The notes beneath the pieces were generated by a model. The model was not told the DNA's origin and did no database searches. It saw nothing but the letters and a program-made list of their open reading frames with translations. The position numbers were made by a program, and so were the translations under genes. This document shows, in pieces, positions 3,937 through 46,516 of a stretch of 64,000 nt of DNA (positions within the stretch are counted from its first letter, which is position 1; every line of letters begins with the position of its first letter). The DNA comes from Marsupella aquatica. Its lineage: Eukaryota; Plantae; Marchantiophyta. The stretch lies in NCBI GenBank assembly GCA_973895155.1, contig OZ316892.1, positions 23,941,971 through 24,005,970 on the forward strand. The letters run 5' to 3'.

Positions 3937-4019
3937 CTTCAGCGTTCTGTCCCCAAACCCTAATCCTCCCCCAAACACTGGCAATTTACCTGATCGACCT
4001 CAACGGAACCCAGTCCAAA

Positions 4020-11880: not shown

Positions 11881-12254
11881 TCACCTGCGACTCTCTCCCG
11901 TCGTTTGCACCCGAAGGAAATTTCGACTTTCAACGCCCAGTTGTGTGAGTGGTGAGTGGTGATGTTCACTGGGTACGTCCTGTCATATGAGTGAAATAAT
12001 ATCTCGTGTACACACACTGCAATAGGATCCAAGGCTAACAAGCTTGGTACTCGAACAACACCCAATCTAAGTAGAGTTCAAACTTGAACCTCCATCAAGG
12101 CGTGTGAAACCCCTCCAAGTAAATGTCTGATACTCTGCCTGTATCTAAGCTTGGCAGGAATGTTCTGCTCAGATCATGTACTTAAGTTCTCGAAATAGAA
12201 TGAAACGACAGAGCTGGTGGAACATCGATCCTAGCTTGAATTCAAAATCACCAT

Positions 12255-15243: not shown

Positions 15244-15259
15244 CGTCCCTTCAAAGCTG

Positions 15260-17160: not shown

Positions 17161-17304
17161 GTGACTTCAGACAGCGAGAACTTGACAATATATACGTACA
17201 TGGCAACTGTGAGCGGCGAGACGATGCCGTCATTGTTCGGTAAAGGATGTGGACGCTGCCAGGTGTGGATTGGGTACACGTCGGTCTGACTGGCACTGGT
17301 CGGG

Positions 17305-18280: not shown

Positions 18281-20374
18281 AGGAGTCCAGTCAGTTGATT
18301 AACATATATCCAGTCAGTTGATAACCTTATATCAATACACTTAAACCTAGGGGTTCCAATAATGAAGTCACAACAATTTTCATTTTGAGTGTTCATCCAG
18401 GTCAGCAAATACCTTATTTTTGCTAAGTCAAAATACATAATGCTCTTCAACCATACCTACCCTTTAAAACTTCTGGGTTACTTGTAACTAGCTACCATTA
18501 AAAATAATTTTCCTTGAAATTGTGGAGCAAATTGGCACAGCAGACGAGAGAAGTTGAATGGAATCTATTGAAGGAGAAGATATATGCTACAAAAATTCCT
18601 TCTCTCAGGTAGCCATGGGTTGGCTGACAGGGTCTCCAAATGTGAGTAATGTTTTAACAGAGTAAGCCCCTAAAGTGCACAACTACGTACCCTCTTAAGT
18701 TGCCCTGACCACTTTTTCAATTAGAAAGGTTCCCCTCGTCGGAGTTGTACATTCCTCACGCATTCAAGTTATTTATTGCAGTCTTCTCCAAACAAGCAAT
18801 ATAGTAGTTAGTTAGTTTAGGGGAATTTAGTAATATTTTGTTCAATGTAATTTTGAAAGTGGGATTGTATTCTTTTCACCACCGTGGCCAATGTTATATT
18901 GTATGAAGGAGAAGGTATATGCTACAAATATTATTTATCTCAGATAGCCATGCATTCTGGCTGATGGGGCCTGCTAATGTGAGTAACATATCTACTGAGT
19001 TAGCACAAGCTCTTCAGTTGCCCTGGCTGAAAACCGCACTGAAAACTAATTTAATTAGAAAGCTGCCCCATGGATTAATCATAGTCAATGCATGCATTCA
19101 TTTCAAAAAATCATAGGCATACATTCCTCACGCATTTGCATTATTTATGGCAGTTTATTTCAAATGGGTAATATAGTAATATAATTAGTTAGGGGGGGAG
19201 CTTACTGGGAATGATTTAATTTGTTAGGTAACACAATACACAAATTCTTTTTACAGGGTGGCTAAAGAATATGATTGGTGGCTAAATTAAGAATATTCTT
19301 AGCATCTTCACCTTCACACAATAATCTTTATCTGATTTTCATGCTTTACTTTCTGACCATTAGATATCCCTCTTTTCAGCCAGGGTAAGCCATGGATTAT
19401 GGCTAATGGCGCCTTTGGCTAGGTAGAAAATTGACTGATGGTAAACAAAAAACCTGGTGTGTTTTTCTCAAATTGGGATGACATTCAGGGTGGTGGGCCT
19501 TTGCTGAGTTTTCACCACTTCAAAAATTCAGGCAGTGGGTTTTAGAGTTTAGGGTTTAAGAGTGACACTGGTGATTGATGTGATTTTTATCAATGATAAT
19601 TATATTACATTGCCAAAAAACAAATTAGGGCAAACCTGGAAATATAATCATAAAGACACCAGACCCAATGAAAGAAACAAAACAAGGGAAATCCCCACCA
19701 ATGAATACAAAGTGCCCAAAATCTTGAGAGTCCCCTAGAGAGTCCCCGACAGCAGAAAATTCACCCCATAGGAAGTCCAGGACAGAACCTCTGAAAAAAT
19801 GGAAGAAAATAGAGGCTAGGGAGGAAGGAGCTGGTTGTCAGCCTGTACACCACAACAATGAAAGCTACTGTGCGTACCCATCATGAAGCATGTGCTTTTG
19901 TGACAAAAACTAGCCAAATTTCACCTGATTGGACAGGGCTAGCCACTTTTGGCAATGCATGTCTTTTTGGTCTCAGGAAGAGCTATTTGCTCAATGTCAT
20001 TTGAGCAAATGACATAATGCTATATGCAAGATTTGGCTTGACTTGGCCAAATTATTATGCAAATGCCAAATGTCAATCTTGCAATGCATTTGATTTGAAA
20101 GAGTTATCAACCCTCTCAAAACTATGGTCTAGTATGGCCGTTCCATTTCATGTGTTTTGGTTCAAAAGTTTAGCAGTCATTTGTGCATAAGAATTTGCAT
20201 ATAATATTCTGTACAAACCTATCATACCTCTCTGGAAAGAGAATTGAATAAGCTTTCTAACAAGCTAATTTGTATTTGATTCCAATTTGATTTGAGAGAG
20301 TCATAAGCACTAAAAGCATCATGAGTAAATTATTTAACGCACCAATTAACCCACCACTCAAGTACTAAGTAAGG

Positions 20375-20586
20375 TGTTAGGATTTACTCTTAGGTCTAGA
20401 GTTACAACTATACCGTAGTTAAGGCTAACCTTAGTTGCAGAGTTTAAGATGAAGGACTTAGGGCCAGCTCTGATATCAATTGTTATGATTTACTCTTAGG
20501 TCTAGAGTTACGACTATACAGTACTTAAGGCTAACCTTAGTTGCAGAGTTTAAGATGAAGGACTTAGGGCCAGCTCTGATACCAAT
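20375..20586 (+). repeat. Two 106-bp units made of LTR 5' end + RT fragment + reverse-complement PBS, directly upstream of the Copia LTR
   Basis: Units start with TGTTA at 20375 and 20481; each contains gcagagtttaagatgaaggacttagggccagct (31/33 identical to 37761-37793) and ends gctctgata(t/c)caat. Confidence 0.85.
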
Positions 20587-20931
20587 TGTTAGGATATCCT
20601 CTTAGGTCTAGAGTTACGACTATACCGTAGTTAAGGCTAACCTTAGTTGCAGACTTGGTTAGGTTAGTCATGTTGTGCACACTCTATAACCAAGAGGTGT
20701 TTGCTTGGAGAGAGGGAACTCAGGCTCATTGTTACGGAGCCAGTTGAGAGATAGGGAGAGCTTGCAATGTGGATGCTTGGTATGGCTGGTTGGCCTAGAG
20801 TGCAGTAAAGCTCTCGTGTGTTCCCGTGGACGTAGCCTCATGTGGAGGTGAACCACATATCTCTCTGTGTCGACTACTGTGCATTGGATGATTCATGGGC
20901 TTGCCGTTGCAATTGTCGTCTATGCTCAAAA
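20587..20931 (+). repeat. 5' LTR of the Copia element
   Basis: Begins TGTTAG; contains the cccgtggacgtag...gtgaaccac U5 motif common in plant Copia LTRs; immediately precedes the PBS. The 3' boundary is approximate. Confidence 0.75.
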
Positions 20932-22474: not shown

Positions 22475-23258
22475 ATGAGTGATTTGGAAGAGATTTTCGA
22501 AGACGTGGAACTTGAAGCACGAGGATCACCGCGACAGTTTGAGGTGGAGAGAGAAGAGCAGGAGGAAGAGCACGTGACATCGGTACCATCACCGATGCGC
22601 CTTGTGGTGGAGGAAGCTGTTCTACTACCGGAGCTCATGGTAGTGCAAAAAAAGAAGATGGGGACGTTCAAGCTTGGGGGACCCAAGTATGAAGTGACAA
22701 AGTATGATGGGCGCTCTGACTACTTGCTATGGAAGAAGCAGGTGAAGGGAGTGCTCTATGCATCAAGGATGGGCCAACTGCTGAGCCCTCATGAAGACAA
22801 TGTTGACTGCATGCAGGAGCAGGGAGTGTGGTGTGTTACACTCTATCTCATGCCTCCCATCATCAAGCAGTTGGGTGCACATAAGGATTGCATGTCCTTA
22901 TTTGCGGAATTGCAGAGCAAGTATCACTGCAAGGAATTGTCGAACCGGCTCTACACTTCCTACAAACTGATGAGTTTCAGGATGAAGGAATCCGGTACAA
23001 AGTTGCAAGACCATGTGGATGCTTTCAACGACATGGTCGTTGACTTGGAAAACCTTGCCTAGGGAGACTTTGAATGATGAGACGAAGGCTCTGCAACTTC
23101 TCAGTTCATTGCCTCCATCTTACCAGTCTCTATCACGAGTCAGTGTTGTTGCATCGTGATAAGGATAATATTTCATACAATGACGTGGTAAGTTCTCTAC
23201 TTAGTGATGATCTTTAGCAGAAGATGCACATCACGTCACAGCCTTCATCAGCTGGTAT
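22475..23258 (+). pseudogene. gag: Copia gag, 5' part (stops/frameshifts; cut by the DNA transposon)
   Basis: KYEVTKYDGRSDYLLWKKQVKGVL and ...LMSFRMKESGTKLQDHVDAFNDMVVDL (UBN2-type gag), LLSSLPPSYQ. Confidence 0.85.
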
Positions 23259-23848
23259 CACTATATTCATTAAAACTGAAATTATAAAGGATATAGGGAA
23301 ATTTGGCGATTTAAAAACATAGTTTTAGGCATGAAAATCGTAAATTTGGAAGATGAAAAATGAAAATTCAAGCATCATTAAATGTAAATTTGGGGACGAA
23401 AAAATGAAATTTGGGGAAAGTAAAATATTAAATTGGATGATATTAAAAAACATTTGGGTGATAAAAGTGTTCATTTGGTTGGAAAATAGATAGAATCTAG
23501 TAATAACATATAAGCTTGGATAGCATCTATATTCAAAACATTTAGCTTGAGTAAGATATCTAACTAAGCACCAATACAATGGAATGACTATAGTGTCTAG
23601 ACAAAGTTAACTAGGATGATATCCAACCTACTAGAAGGAATGAAATGGCATCATTTTCTAGAATTAAAATATACTAAGACAAATAAAATAATAATTATAA
23701 GAAAGTCCATTCAATAGCTTTGAGAGATCATAGAGTATTAATTTGATTGTCTTGTTCTCTCACTTTAGACAAACGCATGGAAATCAACTCGACCCTCTTA
23801 ATCACAAGTCATTTGAGTGGAGACTTGTAACCTACGAGTTCTATCAAT

Positions 23849-26800
23849 CTACTCATCAATTATACCTTCCATGTAAATTTTGAGAGTTTTCAAAACATTC
23901 TTAGGAATTGTCAAACCTCTATCCATAATATTTTGTTCTTTAGCACCTGACTTAAACCCATACATTGCAGAATTTGCAAACTGCCAACTTTGAGTAACAT
24001 TGTCAAACCCAAGATCCAGCTCCCAAGTCTTAGTGGTTTGAAAGCAACGTTCATATCGAACATCATCCTTTGCATCATGCTTACCATGTTTAGACCTCCA
24101 CCATTGTACTTGGAACATAGGAGCATTCCTCTTAGGAATGCTCTCAACAGATGTTGAAGAAGACCCTTCAATATGTTGCAAATCTGTTGAGGGAACCTCA
24201 TGGTTTGGATCCACACCACCCAAAGCTCGAACCAACCAGAAACGCCCTTTGCCATTTTCCTGTTCCCATTCATCCTCTGGACGTAAAAATACAAAGTGAC
24301 CTTCTTGAATATCTTGTAGAGGAATCCAACGTGCAGGTTCTCGCTCTTGTCGTGCACCAACAAAGGGTGCAGCTTGATCTTCCATCTCTTCCATGTACTC
24401 ATTTTGAAGGTCCATCATCTCTGGATTTTGAGAAGGTTCACTTGACGGTTGAGATGTCCCAAAAATCATCTTGTAACCTGTGCCATGGTTAGTCTTTGGC
24501 CAAAAATCAGTTGTCAATGGCAAATGTCTTTCCCCCTCCCCTTCTATTGTAAGTTCCTCGGACAGTGCTTGCACAAGATTCTCCCAATATTTGACTAGAG
24601 GAAATCTCTCTTTATATGCTGCAGAGGTCTCACCCTTACAACTTTTCTTCAAGAAATCAATATAGCGATTAAGGAATGGGATGATTTCTCCAGCCTTCTT
24701 TTGTACATCCCCAGATATAGGTTTTGCAAATGGTTGGCCTTCCGGTAAAATGAGTGCATTTGTGATGGGATCAGTTCTCCAAATGGACCTCCCCATTGCT
24801 GGAAGCCAAGGTTGCTTGACATGTGCTTTACATTGATACACTGGCACATTATCCCTCATGGAGAAAAGAAATGCCACTGGTTTTGAGTGACCTTCTATCT
24901 CTTTCACCTGGAAAGTTTTCAAATACTCCTTGTAAGATGCAACCTCTTGAATCAATCGTGGTACAGGATGAATGCTTTCACACTCCCAAACCTCAGCCAT
25001 CAACCCCAAGAGGGTAGCAACCTCTTTGTATCTGACCTGTTTGGATACTTGAGAAAATAATGCATCCACGTCTTCATGGGTGTGGCCAACCATGAGGAAT
25101 GACATTTGCACAGTTTCAAACACCCCCCTGCTAACAAGCTCAGTGCAAAATGCCATCACATATTGATTTTTGTTATCTTTCCCTGAATTGTCCATCTGCA
25201 ACGTTAGGTGCCTTGGTAAGGGCTTGAAAGAGCCCCTAGTAGTCTCAGGATCATCCTTAGAACCAACATCCACTGTGCTTGACTTTTTAGTCTCCTGACC
25301 ATCTTCAATGCCTTGAAATCGAACAATTGAAACATTTTTGGGTTCCAAGTAACCGGCCAGAAATGCTTCAAAGTCTAGAAGGGACTGAAATATTGGCCTA
25401 GTTGCATTCCAATTCAATCCCTCAAGAAGGTCTCCAGTTTTGTCTCCTGTGTAATCTTCCAAATCTCGGAGGCATTTGGCCAAAGATGTCACGGTAAAGT
25501 CTGCATCTCCAGGCCAAAGTCCAGTCAAACTGAAATGTGCATAAACTCCAGGATCTCTTCCATGGGTTAACATCCCAGTAAGAGCAATAGGCAAAGGCTG
25601 ACCACTACCAAAGAGGGATTTTGGAGTGGGGACCAACCTGGGGATCCAAGTCTTGGCTTGATCCATCTTATCGTGAATAATGCAAAGATAGTTTTGAGGA
25701 TCTTTCTTTGCAAGAACCCTATGAGCATAGTAAACATATCTTCTTGACATTTGTTCACGAAGATGTCGCGCTCTTTTCTCTTCAATCTCTGCACGCTCTT
25801 TTTTTCTCTTCTCCCGCATCAATTGATCTTTGAACTCAGTGCAAAATGTGCACTTGGCAAATGCACTTCCCTTGTGAAAGTCAAAATTATCAAATGAGTT
25901 TTTCCAGATGTTGTACATAGTAACTTCAGTAACCTTAGCAAACCCATCTAATTCCATCTTGGTAAACACCTCTTGGAAAATCTCCTTCTTAGTAAAACAA
26001 GATGGGAGCCGATATTCAATAGTGTCAGTGCCGTTGGACCCACCATAGGGAAGATGTGGCATTGGTTCCCCATTTTGGATTAAAATGGACTCCAACAAGG
26101 CGCGAGCGTGCAAAGTGCTTGATCGTGTCTTCCGTTGTCCCTGATTTCCATGGAAACCAATTGTGCAACCAGCTTTGTATTGATTTTTGTAGTCATAGTA
26201 CTTTGTTGTACTGAACCCATGCATTTTAATAAATGCATCTTTACAAACCACACGTCCCTTTAGAACAAAAAATCCCTTTCTCTTGACTTGCTCCTCTCTA
26301 CACCCAAAGAGACTAAAGATGTGACTTGTTTTGTTGTCACTTGACATTCCATGGCATTCCCTCCTCATTGCCTCTAAGTCCTCCCTGGGCATGTTCAAGC
26401 AACACTTCAGCTTGCAACAACCTTCTCTTTGGATGGAATCAATGGACTCCTCGTTAATTTTCAAAAGTGCCCTCGACTCCAAATGCCTTTTCTTCCTCTC
26501 CTCAAGATCAACTTTTGTCCTCCTAATGAAATTGTATGGTCTTTTTGTAGGTTTACCATCACCATCCGAATCCGGATCGCCCTTAGTTCGACCCGACTCC
26601 ATCCACTTCTCTGAAACTTCCTCAAGGATATCCCCAAGAAACCTTTGAGACGAAATCAATAGAAGGGATTTGATTTCCCACCTCACCAAGCCAGGGGTAC
26701 CAACACGGATATTTGGAAATAATCCGGGTTCATTGATATTCACAACAGCAACACCAACATGATCTGCACCAAGAAGTTCATCGTCAACGGCACCTGTTTC

Positions 26801-27570
26801 AAATGGGACCGTGATAACACCTGTTGCAACCTTTCGACAACGAGAAGCGTCATACAAATCAACCTCCTCCGCCATCCAGTTGGAACGTAGTGTAAAATAT
26901 TTAAATGGAAGATCATTGAAAATATTTGAACTACCAAACACGCCAAAATCTCGTAGAGTGCCCTTTCTAGAAACATGCGCAACATCCCAGATAACCCAGG
27001 TATGCAAGGCCTCTTCTATTGTATCAGCTCCAGGGTGCGAGTATGACAATTTTTGATTTCCTTTAACAATATCATATATTCTTATACTGATGCGACCAAC
27101 CCCGAGTGTTTCAGTATGACAAATATCCATCGGATTTGTCTTGAAAACGACTCCATTTGCAACCAACTGATCAAAAATGAACATCTGAACTTCATCTCCT
27201 TCCTTGAACACGTCCTCTTCAACCCTTGCATCAATTTTGGATTTATCATTTCCAGCATCTCCAGCCAAAGAGAAATCATCGACATTGATTCTTCGGCGCT
27301 GAGTTGATGACCTCAAGTATGCCAATGCACAATCCCAAATCACGCAGGAGTCAATTGCCTCAGCCAAATGAATGTAGAAAATTTGGGCGAAGGAAATGGA
27401 AGTTGACGCGATCCATCAAAACACTTTTCAATCAATACCCCAATTCGATTGTCCCCTAGACAAATGTTTTGTATAGTATCCTGGGGGTCAACCTTTTGAA
27501 CTATCCCAATTGCCGTTTCAAATCCATCGATCACCAATGACACTTCATCCCCTCGTGTAAAATTGATCAT
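23849..27570 (-). CDS. DDE transposase with a Sola1/DUF7869-like core, three N-terminal Tnp1/En/Spm-like repeats and a C-terminal beta-rich module; one apparent frameshift near 27368
   Basis: 1172-aa ORF with CCKLKC, AKCTFC and H zinc-type motifs, IIHDKMDQ, LQMDNSGKDNKN and FLMVGHTHEDVD; the upstream 76-aa ORF (27570-27340) is homologous to the repeated N-terminal module and joins it out of frame. Confidence 0.85.
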
Positions 27571-27696
27571 GATAGCGGACTATCTGTATTCAAATAAAGT
27601 TAGAAATTGTTAAGTTCCCCATGTTACAATCATGTTTCAAAATCTGTACTCTCCTCCAAAAAATATTGTGAAATCACTCAAAACCCTAAATACATT

Positions 27697-28025
27697 CAAG
27701 TCGGGTCGGAATTATTTCGACCCTCCTCCAACATTATGTCTTGAAATGATTGAATTGACTAAACATTTACAAGTCGGGTCGGAATTATTTCGACCCTCCT
27801 CCAACAATATGTCTTGAAATGATTGAATTGACTAAACATTTACAAGTTGGGTCGGAATTATTTCGACCCTCCTCCAACAATATGTCTTAAAATGATTGAA
27901 TTGACTAAACATTTACAAGTCGGGTCAGAATTATTTCGACCCTCCTCCAACAATATGTCTTAAAATGATTTAATTGACTAAACATTGATAAGTTGGGTCG
28001 GAATTATTTCGACCCTACTCCAACT
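27697..28025. repeat. Five 73-bp tandem units, each containing the inverted repeat GGGTCGGAATTATTTCGACCC
   Basis: GGGTC starts at 27703, 27776, 27849, 27922 and 27995 (exact 73-bp period); an inverted variant lies at about 28118-28143. Confidence 0.95.
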
Positions 28026-29188
28026 ATTAAGTTGAAATTATGTCAAAACTATTTGTGAAACTATCTTGCTTATGCTTTTATATACCAGTTTAAAATGCTA
28101 GTTAAGATGACATAGTCAGGTCGGCACAAAATAATTCCGACCCACTTCTAGAAACTATGTTAGTAATCACATAAAGGGGTACAGTAAGTTCTACACATGC
28201 TAGACTGTGGATAAAGGTCTAGAAATGAGTAAAATATATGATCTAGAACCTAATGTGTAAATCTTAATCTAGGTTTGGCTTAAAGGTATTGAATTAGATG
28301 TAGTTGAGCTAGTACTTCTAAGATAAATAAATAAAATCACTAACCTGCTCCGCAATATATCTTTGCCCACCCTTGTACAAGCTAAATGGGTACCTTGGAT
28401 GCCAGCATTGTATCTCTTAGCACCACAGTGCTCACCAGTGCCCTTACTAAACCTTGCATTCAACCATGCGGACCTAAATAAGGCACTCGGACAGAGGAGA
28501 GTCAGTGATCGTACCAATCACTGTCTAAATGACAATGAACCAAAAAATGGATTGTGGGAGGTCTATACTCAGTTTGAGAGGCAAAAAGCCCACACATTAC
28601 CCAGCACACGAGTGGACACCAACAGATCGAGCACGGGTGGATGAGGCACGCACCCAGCACACAAGTAGACATCGGATAGGGTGTCAGCCAATCACTCACG
28701 AGTGATAGGTGAGTTGCGAGCACACACCGCTGACAGCTCGGAAGTTTAAAATTGGTAGGTGAGTCGCAAGTGGTCGTGAGTGGTCACACCATCGGTGACT
28801 CACGATCACATGCACCGAGGAGGGTCTCCATCATTGGCGCACATTGATGCCTCCGTACCCTCTCGGATCCTTGCCTCCTCGGACTCCTCGCTCGCAGGGG
28901 GTATAGGAAGGCAGGCCTTGCGCTTGAGGCCTCATTTCCTTGCCTCCCTCTTGCCTCCTCTCTCGTCTCCTCACTCCTTGCCTCCCTCTTGCCTTGCTCT
29001 AGGGCTTTTGTTTTTGCCTCGCTCTTGGGATTTTTTTTCCGCCTCGCTCTAAGGCTTTTATTTCTGCCTTGCTCCCTTCCCTTTTGGGTCACTCCCTCGA
29101 TCATTGTTTGCTTGTTAGTGCCCTCTTGCAGCCTGTGGCATTCTCCATTGCTGCCACGTGTCATCTTAAATCTCACTCGCCCCTTACA

Positions 29189-32100
29189 ATGTCTACTTCC
29201 TCCAGTTCTGAAGCTTCCACCACCACCGCCAGTTCTCAAGAGTCATTGAACTTCAATTATAACTCTCTGTATGAATATGACCCTGAAGACCCGGATGTCC
29301 AAAAATTGGTTAACAATGCGTTGGAGGCGTCAAAGAAAGCCCAGTTAACTTTTCCACGTAAGGCACCACCTGCTTCAACTTCTTGCCTCGCCCTTAGGGC
29401 GAGGCAACTTTACTTTAATTTGGATTTCAAACTTCTTATTAGGAAAATTTCTATATTCCTTTGTAGTCGCCTCGCCCCAAGGTCGAGGCGACGTCTACTT
29501 CATTCTAGATTTCTTGTTGCTCCGAAGGCGTATTGGACCTTGTATCTTACATTAATAAAGGATCTAAGTTAGCTATATTCTATTTTTTGCCTCGCTCTTG
29601 GGGCGAGGTGATGTCGTCTGCATTCCTCAAATGTAGTCTGCATTCCCAGAAGTTGCCTCGCCCTTGGGGTGAGGAGATGTTATCTGCATTCCTAAATGTT
29701 GTCTGCATTCCCAGAAGTTGCCTCGCCCTTGGGGCGAGGCGATGTCCTCTACATTCCTAAATGTTGTCTGCTTTCCCAGAAGTTGCCTCGCCCTTGGGGC
29801 CAGGCGATGTCCTCTGCATTCCTAAATGTTGTCTGCTTTCCAGAAGTTGCCTCGCCCTTGGGGCGAGGTGATGTTGCCTGCAATGTCCTCTACATTCCTA
29901 AATGTTGTCTGCTTTCCCAGAAGTTGCCTCGCCCTTGGGGCGAGGCGATGTCCTCTGCATTTCTAAATGTTGTCTGCTTTCCAGAAGTTGCCTCGCCCTT
30001 GGGGCGAGGCGATGTTGTCTGCATTCCTAAATGTTGTTTGCTTTCCTAGAAGTTGCCTCGCCCTTGGGGCGAGGCGATGTCGTCTGCATTCCTAAATAAT
30101 GTTTGATTGCTTGGATGAGGTGGCAGGGCTAATTGCACTAGGAGCAAAGAAGATTTTGCAATCTTCTATTTGTCGCCTCGCCCCAAGGGCGAGGCACCTT
30201 GAAAGTTTTCCACATGTCAATGTTAAAAATATGATGCTGACCATTTTGTTTTCAATGTTTCTTACCAGGAAAAAATCTTGAGAAGCAGGAGTTAAATATT
30301 ATGGACGAGGATATCAAGGACTTTGTTTTCCCTGACCAAGATACTCCAGGATTTAGATGGGCACTAGAAGTTGGGGTGTCGGCGGAAGGCAGTCTCTTGA
30401 TTTGTTTCAAGGGCCTCACAAGTCAATTGAATGACCGCAAGACAATTGTTACTCTAGGTCTAGTCGTCCTTGTGAACACGGACAACAACCGCAATGCAAC
30501 GATTATTGTTGAGTCCAATGAGAAATCTCAGTGGATGAGACTTCTAGTGCCAATAAAACTCTACTCGACTTTACTGAATGTTGAGTGGATGGCTCGATTG
30601 GAGATAAGCGTAGCTGATATGGGATTCTTCCCAGATGGAGTAACAATTGATCAGATGTTTGAGAAGATGCGTTCTCAAATAAGTGGAGTTGACCTAGTGT
30701 TTGGATTTCTCTACGTAAAGAAGCACATGCATGACAATGCGGACAGTGTGGACCCTCCGTCTACTTGGATAGTTCAAAGGATGATTGATAAGGCACATTT
30801 TTCATACGAGCAAGCAATCGACAAGAGTTTCATTTTTTGTCCAGAGTTTCAAGAGGCCGCGTGCCGGACGTGGATTTCAGAGATGAAGAAAAAAGAAGCA
30901 AAGCATAAGGCAAAGGAGAGAAAGAAGACAGTGGAAAGAAGTGCGCAATCAAAGACAGAGAAGAAACGAAAGCTTCAAGAGCCGGTTGTTCAACAAGAGA
31001 AACAATTTGGGAGTTCACGCCGTAAGAAGATGGCTAAAAAAAATGAAGATGATGAGGGCCCCCAAAAAAAGCAGACAAAGAAGGCAAAGGTTGTGAAATC
31101 AAAACCAATGTCAGGGTCGACTTCAAACTTTGTCTTGCATCCAAAGGATGATATGTGTCCGACAGAAGGACCCAAAGAAGATGATGTGCTCAAAGGCCAA
31201 GAGGTTTTGTGTAATATTGAGCAGTATTATACTTTTGGCATCCGCGAAGTTTTTGATATTCCTGTAAAAAGTATTAATCCGCCATCGGCCGTTTTTGTAT
31301 ATCGAATGTTCAATCTTTCACATGCAATGGAGATATCAAAGTCTATGATGAAAAACCCTGGACAGGAACCACAAGTTGTTGATTTGATTCCGTATCGCGA
31401 GAGCACTAAACAGTTGCTTCATTATGACAACACACCTCAGGATAGGAAAGAGTTTTTGATTGGTGTGAAGAAGCATGAGATCCAATTCCTTGCCATTAGT
31501 GGCCAGCATTCTGCAAGAGCTGCCCAATGGATCCAAGGGTGGGCCGAGACTGACGCCAAGCTGACAGATCTTGCCAACAAACTAAAGTATAGGAAAGCAA
31601 GGATCCTATCTGACCTCACTCCGAAGACAATTTTGGTTGAGCATTCAAGTTTATCGAATGTTGTCAATGATACTATGCAATTTAAGTCTTGTTTTTTAGA
31701 GACTATTGTTCATGCACGAAGGCAGTTTGAGGAGTGCGGGAAACCGCCGCGTCCAAGGATTGGGACCAATCAAAATACAGACAAGAAAAACTATCAGGTA
31801 CATGTTGGAGCAACGCAAACTATTCTTGATCCGCTTTGGTTAAAGATTGTCAATGGTAGAGGTTTGCCTCGCCCCAAGGGCGAGGCTGCCTTTTCTTGTT
31901 TTCCTTGGTTAGAAGATTAAAGCAAATGTTTGCCTCGCCCTCAGGGCGAGGCAACCTAGACTAGTCTCTCTAAGAATAATTCCCTAGTTCCGTTTCAGTC
32001 AATTGCGGTTAGATGTAGAGGTTCGCCACGCCCTTGGGGCGAGGCGGCTTAGCCTGTTTCAAACATAGGTATAAATTTTCTAACATATGCATTGTACCCT

Positions 32101-34411
32101 GAAACTAATGTCAAGTCCATTGGATATGCAGGATTGGTTTGCCCTGGCAAAGGTTACAATGGGGAAGTCAAGCCTAAAGAGCATTTATTGGTTACTTTTT
32201 GCCGAACATGAGCTCTTTGAATTATGGCGGAATGTGTGTGCAAAATGGTTGAGTGGGAAGCTCCAAGATGGGGGTGGTGGGTATGGAGGGCCAAGACCCC
32301 CAAAATTGATCACTCCCGGTACCTTTCGATGCTTTGAAGGAGAGATTAGTAGCAAATAGATAATTGAGATCTTGAAGGACGTTGAAGAGGAGCGTGTCTT
32401 GCTGAAGAAGGATATCACCAACAAATCAGAGCTTGTCGCAATGGGAGACTTGGCCCTTACAATCAAGATAATGTCCAACTTGAGAACAGTCATTATTGGC
32501 TATTTCGTGGAAAAGTATCGTGAGAAGTTTCCTGTTGGCACATCTTGGGAGTCTCTGGTGATATTGTTGCCTTCCTTGAAATCTGAGCTTGAGATGACAA
32601 AATTGAGGAGAGCAGCGGGTGAGGTTTACCTCAACAATTCATTGAAGAAGAATGTGGTCAAGGAGAGTTTCCCACAAAGTCTGATGGTCAGACTAGATGG
32701 GTTGTATTGTAAAGAATTTGGTGGGATTGGTCGTTCTTGCACGGAGCCTTTCTTGACATTTTTTAGTGAGAATTTGATGAAGACGACCGTGCCGGAAATG
32801 CTACAAGAGCCTTCGCCTTTGTGTCCTCTTGCCATTGTTGACTTCAGTAGGCTCCGACAACATGTTTGGACCGATGCTGAAATTATTGCATTACTGCAAT
32901 ACATTGTGGATCTTCCAAGAAATCCAACAATTGTTGTTGTCATGACTGTGCATCCGGGGCCACTTGCTGCAAACATTTTGAGTGCCCTTAGGAAATTGCA
33001 ACATGAAAAGGGAATGGACATCCACGTTGACTACGGGAGCTATCGACGGAGTGATACACCAGTTCCAGAGGGCTTACTTTTCAGTTGTGGTATGGAGGAG
33101 ATAATCTTTGCAGGAATCACCACTGAGGAGAAATTTGATTGGAAGCAAGTGTTCAGGCCTGGATTTAATTGCCAATTTTCTTACAATTCGGCAATCGACC
33201 CTGATTTCCAAGTGGAAGACAAGACGGAGAAACGAGATAAGAATAAGAGTAAGACAAGTAAGGAGACAGAGACTAAGTCAACTTCGACATTTCACATTGG
33301 AGATTTCTTACGAAAGGCTCCCATGTTTGAGATGGTGGGAAGTAGAGGTGGCTTTGTGAATATTCACGCTAAGCCAAAATGTATGCTGCAGAGTATTATT
33401 GAATTTTTTTCGGCTGAAGGGGAGACTATACTTGACTTTTTCTCGGGAGGACAGGTTATGAAGGTGTCATTGTTGTGTTTTAGAGAATGCTTTGCGTATT
33501 CAGACATTGAGGATGAATATGATTTCACTCAGGCATATGGAAGGGTTCTCTGCGAGAAAGTTCCTTCCATAATGAGTGACCGGATGGGTGGTTCCAAATT
33601 TGGGAGAGCCCGTGATGGGGTTTTCGAGCATGTTGGTGCCAAAGAAGGCGTAGACCAGGGCGAAGATGATATTGAGGAAGGAGAATTGGGTCACGACACA
33701 GACGACAGGGTCACCCGAAATTTGGATGAACGTGGAACACAAGTGGTAGGTATTCCCTACTTTGGTGTGGGGTTGGCTGATGTTGTGGGTCGACCTGAGG
33801 GTGACCCACCAAGAAATCCCTTTGCCGGTGTAGAGAATTGGATGCACCAATCGGACCTAGATCTTACATCGTCCACATCGAACGGACATTGGAAGGCAAC
33901 CGCAGATGGTCTAGGCAATATTGACGCAGTAGAATTGGGAGAAATGTCGGACATTGCGCTTGCAAAGGAGGATGATCGTCAAGTACCTGAGACCGCTGCA
34001 AATGAAGAAGAGAAGGCAGGTGCTTCAAATCCTCCCCTGTCTCCTCTATATTGCTCATCAGAGACTAAATTGGTTTTTACAAGTGCTTCTATAGGAAGCC
34101 CCATAGTATTATCATTTTCACAAAATTCTGGATCCGAGATCGGCAGGACTGGATATATGAAAATAGTCCGTCCTGCAACTCATTTTATATGGAGAAATGG
34201 ACCAAAGGTTGGAATGATAGAATCACTAGACGATGCTCCAAAGATAATGGCAAAATCAGATTACAAAAAACTGAACTTGAGACTGAGCCCAGTTTTTGCA
34301 CCCCCATCCTTTGAAGAACAACTTCCCAGTGGTATCAATTCCGAGATACAGAGTGTTCTAGGTGATCAAACAATAGATGAATTTGGGCATTTTAGCATTG
34401 GAAATTATTAG
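29189..34411 (+). CDS. Transposon cargo gene: ParB/Srx-like domain + beta-class N6A/N4C DNA methyltransferase-like domain; exons 29189-29357, 30269-31797, 32132-34411; one in-frame TAG at 32357-32359
   Basis: Phase-compatible GT-AG introns (c|gtaag...accag|ga gives CGA; cag|gtac...tgcag|gat). ParB-like: FDIPVKSINPP..YR..N..H..EISKSM..P..VVDL..FLAISGQHSARAA..KARIL. MTase-like: LAIVDFSR...EEIIFAG...NIHAKPKCMLQSIIEFFSAEGETILDFFSGG..KVSLLCFRECFAYS. The 3' end may be further spliced (candidate exon about 34482-34572). Confidence 0.75.
29385..30195. repeat. Intron-1 array of 11 palindromes GCCTCGCCC-NNN-GGGCGAGGC, eight of them in an ~65-bp tandem repeat
   Basis: Copies at about 29385, 29469, 29589, 29655, 29720, 29785, 29849, 29926, 29990, 30055 and 30175. 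Confidence 0.92.
31866..32045. repeat. Three further copies of the same palindrome in intron 2
   Basis: Copies at about 31866, 31932 and 32025. Confidence 0.9.
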
Positions 34412-35108
34412 CCATTTCTTTGGTTCTTGGTATTTTAATGACAATCTAAGCTTCATCTTTGTAATAATATACTTTTTTACAGACCAAAGTTCCGTCGTAG
34501 AATCTCCTTCCTCAAAGGATTTTGTTGGCATTCCCTCGGAAAGCGTTGCTGTGGAGGAAGGGTTTGACCCAGGTATACTTTGGATCTGAAAAATGGCAAT
34601 TGAATGTAATTAATGTTCTAGTGCCTGCCCTGAATTGTACATTCAAATGTTGCTCTAGTGCCTACCCTGAATTGTACATTCATATTATGTCTTGAAAGGA
34701 TATGTTTTGAACATGTAGGATAAAGTAAATAATTAGGATATATGCTTAGTGTGAGGCTCTCTCACTGGACTGGACAATTTAATAATTATATAGTGGGTCA
34801 ATCTCATTTTGACCCTTGATTTATGACCATCTATATTTTTTAATTTATAGATGGTCTGAGTGGTATTGGCCTCTGATTTTTGGACTAAATTAAATTTACT
34901 CTAGTTTTTAAATTAATTAGAATATATGATTTAAGTTATTATTAAAAATTTGGGTGAAAAAAAACAAAATTTTGGGCGTTCAAAAGTGTATATTTGGGCT
35001 GAAAAAAATTAGCTTTTGGGAATGCTTTAATAGAAATTTGGCCTGAAAAAAATAACTTTAGGGTTCATCTTATGGACTTTTAAAAGTACAGTTTTAATGA
35101 ATATAGTG

Positions 35109-37892
35109 ATTGGTGCTGCCCTCAATGTTAACCGTGGGAGGAGTATGCAGCGACCAACTGGGGACCGTAGAACCCAATTTAGATCTAAATCCAGATCTAA
35201 GTCCATGGGTAAATCCCCTTAGAGGAGGCAGGTGACATGTTGGAAGTGCAACCAAGTTGGACACTTCAAGTGAGACTGTAAGGGAAAGGCAACGGAAATT
35301 TCATCACCAAATGTGGCTAGGGCTGATGGAGAAGCTGATTTACTCAATGATGAGTATGTTTTATGAAGCCGGGGGTATGCCCTATGCACGTCATCTAGGA
35401 GAGCAGATGATGTGTAGATTCTTGATTGTGCTTGCTCTTTTCATATTTGTTACATTTGTGAGTTTTTCAGTTCTTACTCTATTTCAAACGGTTCAGTTCT
35501 AATGGGAAATGATCACTCTTCTCAAATTGAGGGAATTGCGTCTGTGACGGGGTCTGTGAAGATTCAAATGTTTGATGGTGCTATGCACACAATGTCCAGA
35601 GTCAGGTATGTACCTGGCATGCGTAAGAATCTGATTTCACTCGGTGTGTTGGATTCAAATGGTCATCAATAGAGCGTTATTGATGGTGAACTTCAAGTCA
35701 GGTCGAGAGAGACAGTAATTTTGAAGGGGAGCAGACAAAAGAATTTGTATTTGTTGCAAGGCAATACTGTATGTGGAGAGGCCAATGTAACCAAGTCTCA
35801 CGAGGAGATGACTCAATTGTGGCATTCACAGCTAGGTCACATGAGTGAGAAGGGTTTGGCTATCTTACGGAAGAATGGACTCATTTCTGATTTGCAATCT
35901 TGTAAATTAGAGTTTTGTGAGCATCGCATTTTATGAAAATAGTATCGTCGTGCTTTCGGTGTTGGAACTCATCGTTCCAAAGCGGTTCTTGAGTACATAC
36001 ATAGTGACGTGTGGGGTCCATCCCCAACTCCCTCACACTCTGGAAAGTTGTACTATGTATCTTTTATTGACGATTACTCAAGATTTGTGTGGATTTATTT
36101 CATGACGCATAAGTCTGATGTCTTGTCCATTTTTAAGAAGTGGAAGGCCCAGGTGAAGAATCAGACAAGAAACACGGTCAAGTGTTTGGATACAAGGGTG
36201 AAGAGTTTGAGGTCAGACAATGGTGGGGAGTACACTTTAGTGGAATTTGAAGAGTACTATTCAGAACAGGGGATAACTCGCCATCTCACCACAGTTTATA
36301 CTCCATAGCAGAATGGTGTCGCTGAGAGGCTCAATCGGACATTGTTGGAGCGGTCACGGAGTATGTTGAGCCAATCAGGTACGTTTACCACAAGAATTTT
36401 GGGCATAAGTTGTCAATACCGCAACTTATTTGGTAAATTTTTCACCTTCTGGTGCTATCAATTTCAAAACGCCGTTTGAGATGCGCTATAAGCGGCAAGC
36501 AGACTATCATGGCTTGGTAGTTTTTGGAAGTGATGCATATGCTTTTACACCAAAGCAAAATAGGACCAAGTTGGATCCTACCTCCAAGAAATATGTTTTT
36601 CTTGGGTACCAGAGTGGTGTGAAAGCCTATATAGGCTATGGGACCCTATTGCCTGTAAGCTCGTTGTCAATAGGGATGTTTCCTTCAATGAATCCAGATT
36701 ATTAAAGGAGGGGAAGAAAACTCAGGTCTCCCGTACTGACAAAGGAAAATCTCCTATCCTGGATCTCGTTGAGGGGGAGATTGGTCATGAGGTGCATGAC
36801 CGAAGAGAAGGAGTTGCTCCAGTTATGGAGTTGGTTCCTGTGCCAGAGGAACTAGAGGAGTTTGTTGATGCTGGTGAGTAGCAAGTGGATGCTGCTGAGC
36901 TTCAATTTGTACCAACACACGCAAATCAACCGAAGTCATCGGCTAGAAGAGCATCTGGTTGCACTGTACGCGCTCCACCAAGGTATGGACAGTGGGTTGA
37001 TTCATCTCAGTTGCAAGAGGAGGATTTTGTTATTGACGATAAGGGTGATGCGTTGATTTTGGAAGAAGGGGAACCTTCTTCATTTCACGAAGCAAGTGCT
37101 TCAAAGGAGAAGCAGGAGTGGACTGCAGCAATGCAAACAGAGATGCAGTCCCTGAAGGACAACAAAACTTGGGAGCTTGTCAAGATGCTTGAGGGACAGC
37201 AAGTGGTGGACAGCAAGTGGTGGACAACAAGTGCATGGATATACAAGCTGAAGGATCAGTCCACAGGAGGTGGATCAAAGGTCTACAAGGCTAGGTTGGT
37301 AGCCAAGGGATTCACACGGGAAAAAGGTGTGGATTACAATGAGGTCTTCTCACCAGTTGCTAAGTACTTAACAATACGGCTATTGTGTGTGCTTGTTGTT
37401 ATGTTTGGTCTGCTGCTAGATCAGATGGATGTTGTCACAACTTTCCTCTATGGCACCTTGGAAGAGGTGATCTTCATGAGACAGCCGCTAGGTTTTGTGA
37501 AGAAAGGGCAAGAGGATTTGGTTTGCAGATTGTTGAGATCCTTGTACGGGTTGAAGCAGTCAGCAAGATAGTGGAATAAGCAGTTTGATGATTGGATTCG
37601 TGCACAAGGCTTTCACAGGAGTGTGTTTGACCCATGTGTGTATCTTAAACCGGTGAAGAATGTTGTCTTTGGGTTCATTGTTTTAGTACTTTATGTGGAT
37701 GACATGCTTATTGCGGCCAAGGATAGGTCTGAGATTGTTAAGCTCAAGGCACTACTTAGTGCAGAGTTTAAAATGAAGGACTTAGGGTCAGCTAAGAGAA
37801 TTTTGGGTATGGAGATCACTAGGGACTTGGAGGCTGGCAAGCTATGGTTGACGTAGAGTAGTTATGCGAGGAAGGTAATTGCAAGGTTCAAC
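35109..37892 (+). pseudogene. pol: Copia gag 3' end and pol (zinc knuckle, protease, integrase, truncated RT)
   Basis: CWKCNQVGHFK*DC, ILDCACSFHIC, LWHSQLGHMSEKGL, HSDVWGP..FIDDYSR..LRSDNGGEY..NGVAER, YKARLVAKGF..QMDVVTTFLYG..YVDDML..FKMKDLG; numerous stops. Confidence 0.93.
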
Positions 37893-40852: not shown

Positions 40853-43800
40853 TCAGTGGACAGGACAGCCTGGACGATGGACTCCAGGAGCTGTGGGGCA
40901 CGAGGCGAGAGGGCAGTGATCGCCGTTTGCCTTCTTGCCCCACCAGTTCAACACCTTGTTGTGTTCGTCGAGAGAATAGTACAGCAACAGCGCCATCACC
41001 ACCGTTCCCGCATCCAGGGCTGCACTCAGGATGTAGTTGTATCGCTTCCACCACTGTTTCTTGTAGTTGAACACATAGATGCTGAAGAAAAGAGCCACGT
41101 AAATCCACATGGAATTGTTGACGACGGGGGATGGCGGCATGAGGGTCGCCCCTTTGACGAGCAGCGGGGCGTTGATGAGATGTAGCCATTCACTCCGAGG
41201 CAGGGCGATACCGAGCAGCCATAGAATCATGGGAAAGAGGAAGCCCGGGATGAAGTAGAAGTTCAAGGTTCTGTATGGAGCGCCGCCCTTAGTGAGAAGC
41301 CGGTGAGGGCCGGCGATTCCGAACATCACTGCTTGGTCGTAGAAAACCCTGTCGTGTGGACACGTCCACGGAGAGTTGCTCGGCAGCTTCGAGATGTCGC
41401 AGATGTTGCTGATCGATCCTGTTAGCCACGATGCCACCACCGTGCTCACTAAAGCTGCGATGAGAGTGCTTATCAGCTGTTTCGGAGCAGAATTCATGAA
41501 TCGAAATCCACCCACAAAGACGGGTTCACGATTAGATTTCTCGTTGACCAATGCGATACGGCGAACTTGAATGGAAATCATTCTGCGTAACTTAGTACAA
41601 AAGCATGATTGGTAATCTTGATTTAACCCATGATTGACTTTTGTTTAAGATGCAAACCTGATTGTAAGTTCTCAAAGAATTATGGTGAAAATAAATAAAT
41701 GTCCGTTCAGTTAGATGTGATCGAGGCGTGTTGAAAAAATAAGCGGGACGCTATTCATTTAAACTAATGAAAGAAATCGAAATGTTTGATCAAAACTAGT
41801 AAAATAACTTGACTTCCAGATACACATCTACACGGCCTAGTTCAATCAGTAATTATGATTCCTGTCTCCTGTACTTGTTGTACTATTATGATTCTTGTCT
41901 TCTGTACTTGTTGTACTGTGTAGCTGTTAGAAACCTCGACAACTTCCTTGTGTTCAACTTTAGAAGACTTCTCAGAATCAGGATCCCCATTTTGCTTCGA
42001 ATTGCACTAGCTTAACCGTGATCATCGTTTAGGGTACACCGAAGATAGAGTTTCTGCCCAATCTTTTACAACATTCCAGATTTTTCCAGATCCTTTCACA
42101 CTGTCTAAAGATTCGTGGACGAAGAGTTTCGTGGAATCTTTTGTGATTACCTGTGCAACGAAGGTTGCCCTGGGTGGGATCTTCATATAGTGGCCAAGCT
42201 TGAAATTCCCCAAGTAATTGGCCGTCCGACCGCAAACGACGGCGCTGTAGGTTCGAAACATCACACTCGTGATGGGCTCTCCCGCGCGTATGAACCCCAT
42301 GAGATACTGCGGAATGATTCCCAAGTTCGGTACCTGGTCCCCGTACCGAATCCAATTATCCACTGAAATTTCAGGAGTATCTTACTGTACAATCATGTTG
42401 AAGGGGAGTAGTATCTTACTGCCTCTATATTCTGTATTCTGAGGAGTAGCTGCCTATTTTCTGATATTGAATGGCTCTCATGATCGATGCAACAGCAGGC
42501 TAATTAACCATTTTCCATTGATCCATACCTGGCTAGTAGTTCCGACAAGTATACAGATGGGGACCACCAAGACGGCGGTAACGCCAGTGGCAAGGATGAC
42601 GCCCCACCATTTCATTTCCAGCTGGTCTTTGTAAACTACCAGATTCACAATCGCAGCGAGATGCGTGCCTAACAGCAGGAGCAAACACCATCGAAATGGA
42701 ATTTCCGGGTACTTGCGCATCAACCTAGTGTGAACGTCTGGAGGATCTGCTGATCGTTGCGTGATCGCAGATTTGAACGTTCTCAGAAGATCCCTGTACA
42801 TCATGTGACAAATTTGAGCAAACATTAGAATTGATGAGTACGTGGCCGGTTGAATTGGCTGAGACCAAGGCACACAACATTGCAGAAAGGTTTAATTAGA
42901 ACAAGAGCTGAGTCCGTTGCCTAAATGTTTTGAAGCGGAGAAGAGTCCAGTCATGAAGTAGTCTGGTCGTTCGTGGCAGAAGAAGCTGACTCACTTTCCA
43001 TTGAAGAAAAGTACTTGTGAGATCACAGCGCCGAAGAGAGCAAAAGTGATGCCAACGCCCGTGGTGTAGAAAGCGCTGAAATGCGGAAGAGATTCGACAT
43101 CACGAATGGTGCCTCTGCTGCGGTGCAGTTTGGAATGTGTTCGCTCGAGTACTTTAGCGACATCATATATCTGACCTGAAGTCCAAGTTCCAAAGATCTT
43201 AGTCAATGGCGCGCGTCGATAATCTTCAGTCAGAGTTCACATATAATGACAACTCTCAATTTAATTGACAGCGACCTCTGTAAAGTTTATAAATCCCACA
43301 GAAGAGACTTCGTCCAACCAACATTCATCTCTGAAGGAATCTATTGGAAGGGAAGGCGTAGTCCTTCGTCGAAATAGCCCACGTTGGCAAAGTACATTAT
43401 CGGAAATAATTATATCATACGCGTGCATTTTGGCAATTTGAGCTCTCATTTAAAGCATCATTAATATAAGAACATCTAGATCGACCGTTATATATTCAAT
43501 AAGTTGGACGTACGCTTTAGTTAGGAATTGAGCTCGAGATCGGAGCCTTGACTAGCTGAAAGATTTAAGTCCATACCTGACCGGGTGAAGAGGCCCATGG
43601 AGAAAATGGGGTAGTTCTTGGAGTGGAACCAGTTCTTCCAGTAAGTGAGGGGAGCGAGAAGATAAGCTTGGAGGACAAATCCAACGAGGATATTGATAAC
43701 AGCAGCCCAAGGAAGAATGAGTGGGCTACCATTAAATGACGAGATCGTGGCCCAGTTCAGACTAAACGCACCAAGGCCCAGTCCGCTTAATCCTGAGCCC

Positions 43801-46516
43801 AGTTGCTGGGCCAGCACATTGTGCTTGAAAGCATAGCATACCACGGAGACACTGCTGAGGGAGGGAATGAATAAACCGGGTATGACGTAGTACGCGCACG
43901 ACGCAGTAAAACAGATGATGAAGAAGGAAAGGAGTGATATCCCCTTTCGTTTTTCGTCCTTGTGAAGAGCCCTGCGTATATATGCGCGCGGGCAACCTTA
44001 GTTTAGATGTTAGAAAGCACCAATCTCAATTACCACCGGCAACCGAATCCAAATCTATAGAGACTGAGGCAGATTCCTAATTATTGAGTCAGAACGGACT
44101 CTTCATTTTTGTCCCATTGATATCTGCGTTTCTGTTTTCTTCTTAATATGCATGCCCGGTATTCTTGCAGGGAATATAATCGAGTACTTAGCATCATTCC
44201 AACTGAGGAGCTAAGACGTTAGAAATTAACCCGATGTCCTTCAATTCCTAATCATACTGGATTCTCTCCTTTCACTGCTACCGAACTTCATTTCCGTGAC
44301 ACTTCATCTCCCTGTTTAGTGCTTCATTATGAGGATTTCCGCTGACGCTGAGTTAGATTTCTGATGTCCACCTTTAGTATCCCAGAGACTGATTACGCTA
44401 AATGCCTCCGTTGCCAGAATATGCAATTGAGACCACCCATTGATGGTTGGTAAAGGTCCACAACTCTTTATTATTCTTCCGAAGCCTCGTTTTGCCAACA
44501 TGTAGAGTCCTTGAACAATATCAGCTACTGCGCTCTTTCATTTCCGTTGATTAATTATGTGGAATGTTTTGCCCTCTTTCTAGCTTCATCAAAGGAAGGG
44601 CACGTTCATTCATTATAGGGAGCCTTCATTAGCTAGCAGAAGTTCGTGCTAACTTCGATGGAAATTTCAAATTGCATTATGCTTCCTTGAAGCAGGATAT
44701 GCTCTTGAACTATTAGCCGGGGTATAAATTATAAGGGTGATTGAAGTAATTAGACCAATTGCATCATGTTAGACAGTCATTTTTAAATTCGGCAGAACAA
44801 AGATAGAATGGACTAGATCGAGATTCAATACAGTACATGAAATGTAAACAGAGTGACGACGTAAATGAACGATCTGAATCACTTACTGAGAAAGGGAGAT
44901 ATTGACCAAGCTTGCAGGCCACCAAAACCTCGCCGGCTCCACCAAAAACTTGTACAGCAGTACCGCCCAACTAAATCCAAACAACTGCACCCTTGATTCA
45001 ATCAATCACAAATTCATTTGGACTGATCGGCCACGTACCGATTAAGCATAAATATATCACATACGGAACAATTTTGCGAAGAGGAACCGAGGCCCGAGAG
45101 AATTGAAGAATTGAGTAGTTGTGTTACCTCGCAAGTGATGGTGACCACGAACCCAGGCAGGAACCCGATGTGCTCGTGCAGAAACACCTTGATCATGTTG
45201 AACACGAATATGCCTCCCGGCCTCACCGACCCGGCGCTGGCGAAGATTGTAATCAGCCCATGCTCCTTCGTGCTGAACGGCCCCGGATTCAGCGAGAATC
45301 CCCGTTGCGTTCCGGGAATCCGAACAAACCTGTCGGGCAGCGTGTTCGCCATGAACTTCCCAAGCGGAGCAGTGGCGATGAGCACCGTCGTCACAGTGAT
45401 GACGATCGGCTCGTTCCGGTACGAGAAGTAGGTGTTGAGGAAGGTGATTCCAATGCATGAGAGGGTGCCCAGCACAGCAGTCCGGAACGTCCAATACGGA
45501 ATGGATGGATCGTCCGTGGTCGGAACAATGAGAGCCACCTGCTCAATCGGGGACTGGTCGACAGCATCGTCGCCCAGCCCCCCGTTCTCGCTCGTGCTAG
45601 CTGTCGTGCCTTCATCCTGACCTGCAGCATGAGCGATCATGCCCCCGTCGGACTCCTTGCTCAAATCTCTCGACCTCGGCAGCTCGAATCCCGCGCTCGT
45701 ATATGAGGGAATGGACTTTGTTCGGGCAACTGATGAGCCCCCGGACGCTGGTGAGCTCAAAGCGTTATCTAGTTTAATTTCTAGGCTCTCCATTTTCGAC
45801 TTGACGTTTGACAGCCATCCGGACAGACCTGACCGAGTGCGTTCTGAGCGTTGCAGAGTCTTCGTCTCCAACTCACTGCCGACGCTCTTCGCTCTCGGGA
45901 GAACGGATGTGCTCCTTCCATAAATGCTTTTGAGATCTTGACCATCTGCATCATTAGGTCCAGGTGACCTGCAGTCCTGCGGCCGAGAGCTCTCTTTATA
46001 GGTTTGAGCTCGAAGGAGAGTCCCTAAAAAGTTTTGAGCTGCTTTCGAGTGTGGCACAGATTTACTCCGTCTGGTCACGTCCGAGACTGAATCATCGCTT
46101 GGTCCGGTTATGTCCTCGGAATTCCTCGAGCTGTCTTCAGCTTGATCGCTGCCCCCGTCGCTGCCTTGTTGGACTTCCGCTCTGAGGTTAGACTGAGCAT
46201 TCTCGTCGCCTGGATTGATCGAGTTCTCAGACCATAATTTACGTCTGGTCTTTCGCAACGGTGGAGTTGGAAGCACTGCGCCTACAGCAGCTTCAAAACG
46301 CTGAATTACTGTCTTGACTGAAATGCTTCCGTGTTGAGACCACGAATCAGCGCTGGACTCTGAGCCGAATTCATCTTGTTCCGCGGGATGTTTGCTACCG
46401 TGAAACTCCTGACTACCACCGCTTCTTTCCAAAATTGTGCTGGGACTCCCAATTTTCTCCTCCACCGCTTGCTCTTTACCTGGGCCTTTTGACGCGGCAG
46501 TTCGATCGCCGATCAT
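40853..46516 (-). CDS. OPT: Oligopeptide transporter (OPT family); exons 46516-45128, 44984-44887, 43971-43577, 43175-42995, 42793-42529, 42333-42151, 41476-40853
   Basis: QSPIEQV..TDDPS..TFR, LNPGPFSTKEH, WWPASLV, DVHTRLMRKYPEIP, FKLGHYMKIPPR, WTCP, WWKRYNYILSAALDAG, CPLASCPTAPG motifs; GT-AG junctions found. Confidence 0.93.

Follow-up and report, generated by a model that had tools for sequence, protein, structure and literature searches.

What does a liverwort transposon gain by carrying a gene that joins a ParB-like domain to a DNA methyltransferase-like domain? The question is raised by a 64,000-nucleotide stretch of the Marsupella aquatica genome (GenBank assembly GCA_973895155.1, contig OZ316892.1, positions 23,941,971 to 24,005,970 of the forward strand), here called the window, from whose first letter all coordinates are counted. 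Within it, an 11,854-bp element with terminal inverted repeats (TIRs), at 23257–35110, carries a transposase gene and a second, cargo gene. The cargo product is predicted to combine the ParB N-terminal fold with a permuted beta-class amino-methyltransferase (MTase) fold, and it looks like a pseudo-enzyme throughout its family. We give about an even chance to a role, suggested by analogy, as a non-catalytic binder of CpG-containing palindromes in the introns of its own gene, which would help copies of the element resist silencing by 5-methylcytosine (5mC) or stay mobile.

Results

The cargo gene begins with an ATG at 29189, and its three exons join through GT..AG introns (phase 1, then phase 0) into 1,325 codons plus a stop (Table 1). 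A first-pass annotation of this DNA had proposed a single gene of about that length inside the TIRs. The exons, the introns and the TIRs bear this out, but an in-frame TAG at codon 642 had been overlooked. All the peptides it quoted, KKRK included, lie in the gene where it placed them. KKRK starts at 30961, FDIPVKSINPP at 31252, SGQHS at 31498, KARIL at 31594, DFSR at 32840, HAKPK at 33365 and DFFSGG at 33434. Exon 2 encodes an N-terminal domain (about 30301-30747), conserved in homologues and with a weak PH/PTB-like fold in the model (Z up to 4.7), and a ParB/sulfiredoxin (Srx)-like domain (about 31219-31680), after which model and alignment place a conserved helical region. The MTase-like domain of exon 3 spans about 32732-33586, and a conserved C-terminal domain of about 115 residues (34050-34411) ends in DE(F/Y)G.

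The first junction (29357/30269) was placed from splice signals and phase only. At the second, 10 of 13 exon-2 homologues have Val, the product of reading through the GT, and then diverge or end, and P0006 and L001 have Gln (CAG) right before DW; this pattern argues that intron 2 is conserved. No splice-site joint was found among the run-contig joints listed (the best 15 of 146, and 8 of 8), a result with no bearing on splicing.

The MTase-like fold is a model prediction. The exon-3 model (417 residues, 72 sequences, mean pLDDT 89.6) matches CcrM (E 2.6e-08, Z 17.8, root-mean-square deviation (rmsd) 3.6, 216 residues aligned), and BceJIV, MboIIA, RsrI, PvuII and N4CMT follow at Z 14.5-16.1. 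A profile search also matched RsrI (E 2.5e-09), PF01555 clusters were returned from the ESM Atlas (0.93), and a viral structure library was concordant. DFSR (residue 803) precedes DFFSGG (residue 1001), which is the permuted order. The domain had earlier been described as the permuted beta-class block from motif X to motif I with the catalytic motif first. The fold, the order and motifs X and I stand, but the 'catalytic motif' reads DFSR.

The ParB N-terminal fold is likewise a model prediction. In the AlphaFold model of exon 2 (pLDDT 71), KorB is matched at Z 8.8 (95 residues aligned, rmsd 2.7) and PadC at Z 8.5, and the top eight of 48,161 chains searched were all of ParB/Srx type, judged by title or recall. 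Noc, ParB and Srx took the top Foldseek ranks (E 0.006 or weaker), and a ParB_N cluster stood at rank 29 in the ESM Atlas (0.91). The GxxR arginine is the nucleotide-binding residue of ParB. Here the site reads GQHS, with Ser in place of the Arg, in 14 of 14 aligned sequences. The ParB pattern claimed for this region thus survives as a fold, but not in the GxxR motif or as a Pfam match.

Profile searches were less generous than the models. The earlier expectation had been of both ParBc and PF01555 hits; both folds appear in the AlphaFold models, but the window's MTase piece scored 19 bits against PF01555, under the 26.7-bit gathering cut-off, which only P0009 (29.2) and P0083 (26.7) reached, and Pfam gave no ParB match to the window protein or to the homologues scanned. 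A profile search with exon 2 returned only Lys/Glu-rich noise, and a single-sequence PDB search with the MTase piece gave nothing useful.

The residues that make a canonical amino-MTase are missing. A [DNS]PP[YFW] motif is absent from all 181 proteins fetched, a set that includes fragments and exon-2 pieces. In the motif IV column the 54 covering rows have D in 50, F/L in 51, S/T/G/A in 48 and R/H in 44. The DFSR Asp ends a strand (model residues 157-161) that is followed by a loop and a helix, as in motif IV, and it lies nine residues before a conserved Trp, against ten in most phage controls. The Glu of motif II, a residue that binds S-adenosylmethionine (SAM), aligns by hhalign to Ser, and its column reads S 25, A 21 and V 8, together 54 of 66 rows. 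In the phage control MTases, 7 of 129 tblastn records, D-x-P-Y and the motif II Glu are kept in 7/7. Because PPY is missing family-wide, the motif II Glu is mostly lost and the GxxR Arg is Ser, the family product looks like a pseudo-enzyme rather than a writer of the DN4MT1/N4CMT type. The sequences accordingly give no support to the working N6A/N4C methyltransferase that had been proposed. Inactive MTase domains have precedents in the DIRS1 MTase domains and METTL14, in the accessible part of one survey (PMC4738411).

Several observations weigh against a pseudo-enzyme that binds its own introns. DFSR was equated with motif IV from strand position, aligned ranges and D..W spacing, not by residue-level superposition, and hhalign (probability 94.6) covered only motifs X-II. 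In 26 of 66 rows an Asp stands in the column that follows the lost motif II Glu. The motif X Lys (71/72 rows), DFFSGG (38/64, with most others close variants) and the motif IV Asp (50/54) are conserved, which would fit a SAM or base pocket that still works. On the ParB side, the Foldseek E-values all exceed 0.001. Finally, the palindromes described next could be transposase sites.

The introns of the cargo gene contain all 14 window copies of a 21-bp palindrome, GCCTCGCCC-N3-GGGCGAGGC, which appears in none of 100 shuffles. Each holds two CpG. Eight of the 14 lie in a 65-bp tandem array, and the other six, three per intron, lie in unrelated flanks, a spread that points to selection for the motif as such.

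Sequence homologues were found for exon 3 (n=9) and exon 2 (n=13). The exon-3 profile search gave 240 representatives, of which the best 150 were examined. The homologues with a species name belong to Calypogeia fissa, Ceratopteris richardii and Riccia sorocarpa, the last with many diverged paralogues, and no algal sequence is among them. Both exon profiles matched 11 of 186 fetched proteins, five of which have both motifs, and P0182 carries the ParB–MTase fusion in one continuous 1,009-residue open reading frame (ORF); a single fused gene is supported by these sequences. When fused proteins of 1,002-2,860 residues were sought, none of 4,488 candidates qualified; the search was weak, and P0182 came from another one. 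Of the relatives in the databases, many are fragmentary or rest on truncated gene models. In a quick, unrooted tree of 25 selected rows, which carries a long-branch warning, Calypogeia is the nearest named relative of the window protein; the tree is not read as pointing to a donor or a transfer. Identity to six long homologues is 31-49% in the MTase core and 15-23% in the linker; the better-kept core argues that the domain is under selection, probably for binding over canonical catalysis. Two relatives, P0085 (Riccia) and P0133, end in a NIF/FCP1-like phosphatase domain (PF03031, E about 1e-12), either a fusion or a gene-model merge.

Searches outside plants returned little. None of 12 candidate stretches in the prokaryote scan and none of 24 in the virus scan was confirmed as a homologue, the best phage tblastn match had E 0.04, PHROGs gave weak MTase matches only and NCBIfam nothing relevant. 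A metagenome scan found one 1.8-kb contig, too short to give context.

The copy in the window is a pseudogene. Its premature TAG, between the ParB and MTase parts, blocks the MTase half, so the copy is not intact as first described. In each of the six runs (X1–X6) the contigs that cover T32357 have C there (a CAG codon), which makes the stop private to this copy. Compared with the X1 majority (the 40 best-supported of 317 difference rows), the listed differences in exons number 31, 21 residue-changing and 10 silent. Transitions fall at CG or CHG in 25 of the 26 listed, against a background of 442 of 1,651 cytosines (27%), and this bias indicates that the copy was likely 5mC-methylated and is decaying. 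SGQHS, DFSR and DFFSGG are untouched by the listed differences (10/10 and 17/19 located on two long contigs) and are therefore family features.

In X1 the cargo contigs have depth 474-480 and the transposase contigs 509-517, against 12-18 for the host contigs (5,275 and 2,342 bases) that match the window with 0 differences. Contig depth is a poor measure of copies, and as a rough ratio it would put the element at about 30–40 copies in X1. Copies of both genes are so similar that they collapse into contigs of 1.4-1.7 kb, consistent with a recent burst that carried both.

The element itself is a cut-and-paste transposon, as had been claimed: the gene lies between TIRs, TGGT is duplicated, and an empty-site joint is present in four of four runs. 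There, contigs pass from 23252 directly to 35111 with four shared letters, which fixes the target-site duplication (TSD) at 4 bp. The interrupted element is a Copia, with gag upstream and RVT_2 downstream; this copy of it has several stops and frameshifts, and it is highly abundant, with a summed X1 depth (22000-23256, 35111-38100) of about 10,000-20,000 against 12-18 for the host. CACTA ends (CACTA..TAGTG, with a 2-bp AT duplication) were ruled out, because the empty-site joint leaves out 11,858 bp and shares four letters.

Transposase and cargo gene lie head to head on opposite strands, 1.8 kb apart. The transposase ORF matches DUF7869 (PF25273, E 1.7e-43, 148.9 bits) and has a candidate DDD triad at HDKMDQ, MDNS and HEDVD. 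A single-sequence PDB search with it gave no useful match, and a literature search found no paper on DUF7869. We take its three acidic motifs to be Sola1-like, and the element has the TIRs and 4-bp TSD of Sola1; from motifs and TSD together it is probably of Sola1 type. Sola1 is known from Physcomitrella, according to the accessible parts of several reports (PMC9033089, PMC4455052, PMC5751038 and a 2026 transposase preprint). The GGGTCG-N9-CGACCC array between the two genes could hold sites for the transposase or for the cargo protein.

Table 1. Features of the element and its cargo gene (window coordinates)
Feature	Position	Strand	Basis
Left TSD, TGGT, 4 bp	23253..23256	.	sequence and empty-site joint
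Left TIR, outermost 22 bp same as right TIR	23257..23288	+	inverted-repeat pair
Transposase ORF, 1,188 aa stop to stop, DUF7869	23849..27415	-	PF25273 match
Five GGGTCG-N9-CGACCC palindromes in a 73-bp tandem array, upstream of transposase	27660..28024	.	repeat search
Cargo exon 1, 56 codons plus 1 base	29189..29357	+	ORF and splice signals, without homologue support
11 palindromes GCCTCGCCC-N3-GGGCGAGGC, intron 1 (candidate self-binding sites)	29385..30195	.	motif count
Cargo exon 2: N-terminal domain, Lys/Glu-rich linker with KKRK, ParB/Srx-like domain	30269..31797	+	13 homologues, model
3 further palindromes GCCTCGCCC-N3-GGGCGAGGC, intron 2	31866..32045	.	motif count
Cargo exon 3: helical region, beta-class amino-MTase-like domain, acidic linker, C-terminal domain	32132..34411	+	profile, model
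Premature TAG, codon 642, private to this copy	32357..32359	+	T32357 = C in run contigs
Right TIR	35079..35110	-	inverted-repeat pair
Right TSD, TGGT; Copia resumes after	35111..35114	.	sequence and empty site

Elsewhere in the window, pieces of an OPT oligopeptide transporter gene (PF03169) lie at 40853-46555 on the minus strand, with the low depth of single-copy host DNA. A 2-oxoglutarate/Fe(II) dioxygenase gene (DIOX_N, 2OG-FeII_Oxy) lies at 13665-15279 (-), and a weak match to the JTB family at 3307-3999 (-), its E of 2.6e-4 just under the cut-off. Other tandem arrays, at 5300-6600, 11180-12940, 15240-18240 and 20375-20692 (units of 65, 148, 78, 93-120 and 106 bp), are probably interiors of other transposons. 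A fold-back inverted repeat resembling a miniature inverted-repeat transposable element lies at 48558-49250, and distant inverted copies pair 4542-5011 with 58466-58855 and 20791-20878 with 55959-56045.

Discussion

A self-binding role for the cargo protein is plausible. Intact copies would make a nuclear protein, imported through KKRK, whose ParB and MTase folds would bind the CpG palindromes in the introns of its own gene. Contact could be made through the helical region after the ParB-like domain together with the DNA surface of the MTase fold. By analogy with VANC, such binding may let cognate copies escape host 5mC silencing, or stay transcribed or mobile.

The protein might instead be an active amino-MTase with a non-canonical D-F-x-R site, writing N4-methylcytosine (4mC) or N6-methyladenine on its own palindromes and so blocking or outcompeting 5mC. 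The whole beta-MTase fold is retained, the Asp, the Lys and DFFSGG are conserved, and each palindrome offers two CpG. Permuted MTase clades with unusual strand-4 motifs appear in the accessible part of Iyer et al. (PMC4738411), and algal counterparts are proposed, in the parts seen of two reports, to modify their own elements (PMC12477816; bioRxiv 10.1101/2025.02.11.637652). Against this, PPY is missing in 181/181 proteins and the motif II Glu is mostly replaced, this copy has a pattern of 5mC deamination, and N4CMT and CcrM, as described in the available text, hold the target amino group by SPPY or DPPY residues (PMC10406627). We therefore regard a working writer as unlikely.

Other explanations leave silencing aside. 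The protein could be a structural cofactor of transposition, without a chromatin role, holding the long element as a clamp or bridge or bringing in the transposase. A ParB-like fold beside parS-like palindromes, the divergent two-gene layout and the similar X1 depth of both genes would suit this, but the palindromes sit mid-element in introns, away from the ends, Ser replaces the nucleotide-binding Arg, and the retained MTase fold is left unexplained; we hold such a cofactor to be quite improbable. We give least credence to a passenger or host-domesticated gene, with palindromes that are transposase sites or nested-repeat relics. This copy is indeed broken, and many database relatives are fragmentary or truncated gene models. 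However, conservation follows the domains across both liverwort classes and a fern, Riccia holds many diverged paralogues, codon 642 is open in other copies, and a Sola1 of Ectocarpus has the same layout as far as the text seen describes it (PMC12477816). The non-catalytic self-binder remains the reading we prefer.

The architecture is already published, so the earlier claim of novelty was overstated; the systems below are described from the accessible parts of their reports. Ectocarpus Sola1-1_Ec32 carries, opposite its transposase, a gene for a ParB plus N4C/N6A-MTase protein proposed to bind its own element, and similar genes occur on red algal Plavaka elements. The best match listed for the Sola1-1_Ec32 transposase is Sola1-1_PPa_tp, and its TSD is 4 bp (PMC12477816). 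Both elements are large, with TIRs and a 4-bp TSD, and in both a fusion of ParB and amino-MTase domains lies on the strand opposite the transposase, as a single protein of 1,104 residues there and 1,325 here. They differ in host (brown alga against land plant), in length (21.5 kb against 11.9 kb) and in termini (AACCG against ATCAC). The catalytic motif is absent here, the algal protein being compared by description only, and the intronic palindrome array is not reported in the available account of Sola1-1_Ec32.

In the red alga Bostrychia, Plavaka elements bear PAG2 (PF01555 plus SET) and PAG3 (ParB plus 2OG) beside inverted-repeat arrays (bioRxiv 10.1101/2025.02.11.637652). Transposon-borne PF01555 and ParB-like domains are shared with the liverwort element, as are inverted-repeat tandem arrays beside the ParB gene. 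As the preprint text seen has it, the Plavaka domains belong to two genes (MTase with SET, ParB with 2OG oxygenase) on EnSpm-type elements, whereas the liverwort DUF7869 element has a single fusion gene, in which neither a SET nor a 2OG domain was detected. VANC21 of the VANDAL elements binds motifs that tandem repetition has multiplied both within the introns of its own gene and upstream of the transposase (PMC5735166), so that accessory protein and accumulating target motif resemble what we find. Those are Mutator-like elements of Arabidopsis with proven activity; the likeness is a functional analogy, without shown homology.

The predicted fold and the motif order are those of CcrM, M.RsrI, M.PvuII and N4CMT (Z 14.5-17.8). 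These enzymes and MpDN4MT1 are active and keep DPPY or SPPY in the accounts available: TSPPY in MpDN4MT1 and SPPY in N4CMT. N4CMT is structurally no nearer than the bacterial enzymes and gave no sequence match at E up to 5. The specific kinship once suggested with DN4MT1, N4CMT or plant 4mC writers is not supported, since those keep the (T)SPPY that is absent here. With the CTP-binding domains of ParB, KorB, Noc and PadC the cargo protein shares the predicted fold, with Ser for the GxxR Arg. The literature searched, which did not extend to paywalled articles or to supplements on bioRxiv (Bostrychia Table S6), yielded no report of a ParB–MTase on a land-plant transposon. New are the land-plant family (Calypogeia, Riccia, Ceratopteris), an estimated 30–40 nearly identical copies of the element within one run, and the 14 intronic palindromes.

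To our knowledge, few transposon-encoded counter-silencing proteins (VANC, TnpA) have been characterised. Where Marchantia 4mC came from is not explained by the cargo gene. The algal ParB–MTase accessory genes have only been predicted; with the present family their range reaches liverworts and a fern, and this family suggests an MTase domain changed from writer to binder. More tentatively, and with the balance somewhat against it, the family may be an old transposon-borne anti-silencing system of seed-free land plants built from prokaryotic parts, in which a ParB-fold and MTase-fold reader (or D-F-x-R writer) would keep copies free of 5mC. It would then be a second, independent VANC-like system, its layout shared with brown and red algal elements. 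The family offers a candidate target motif and a young multi-copy set, and the self-binding hypothesis is directly testable in a transformable liverwort.

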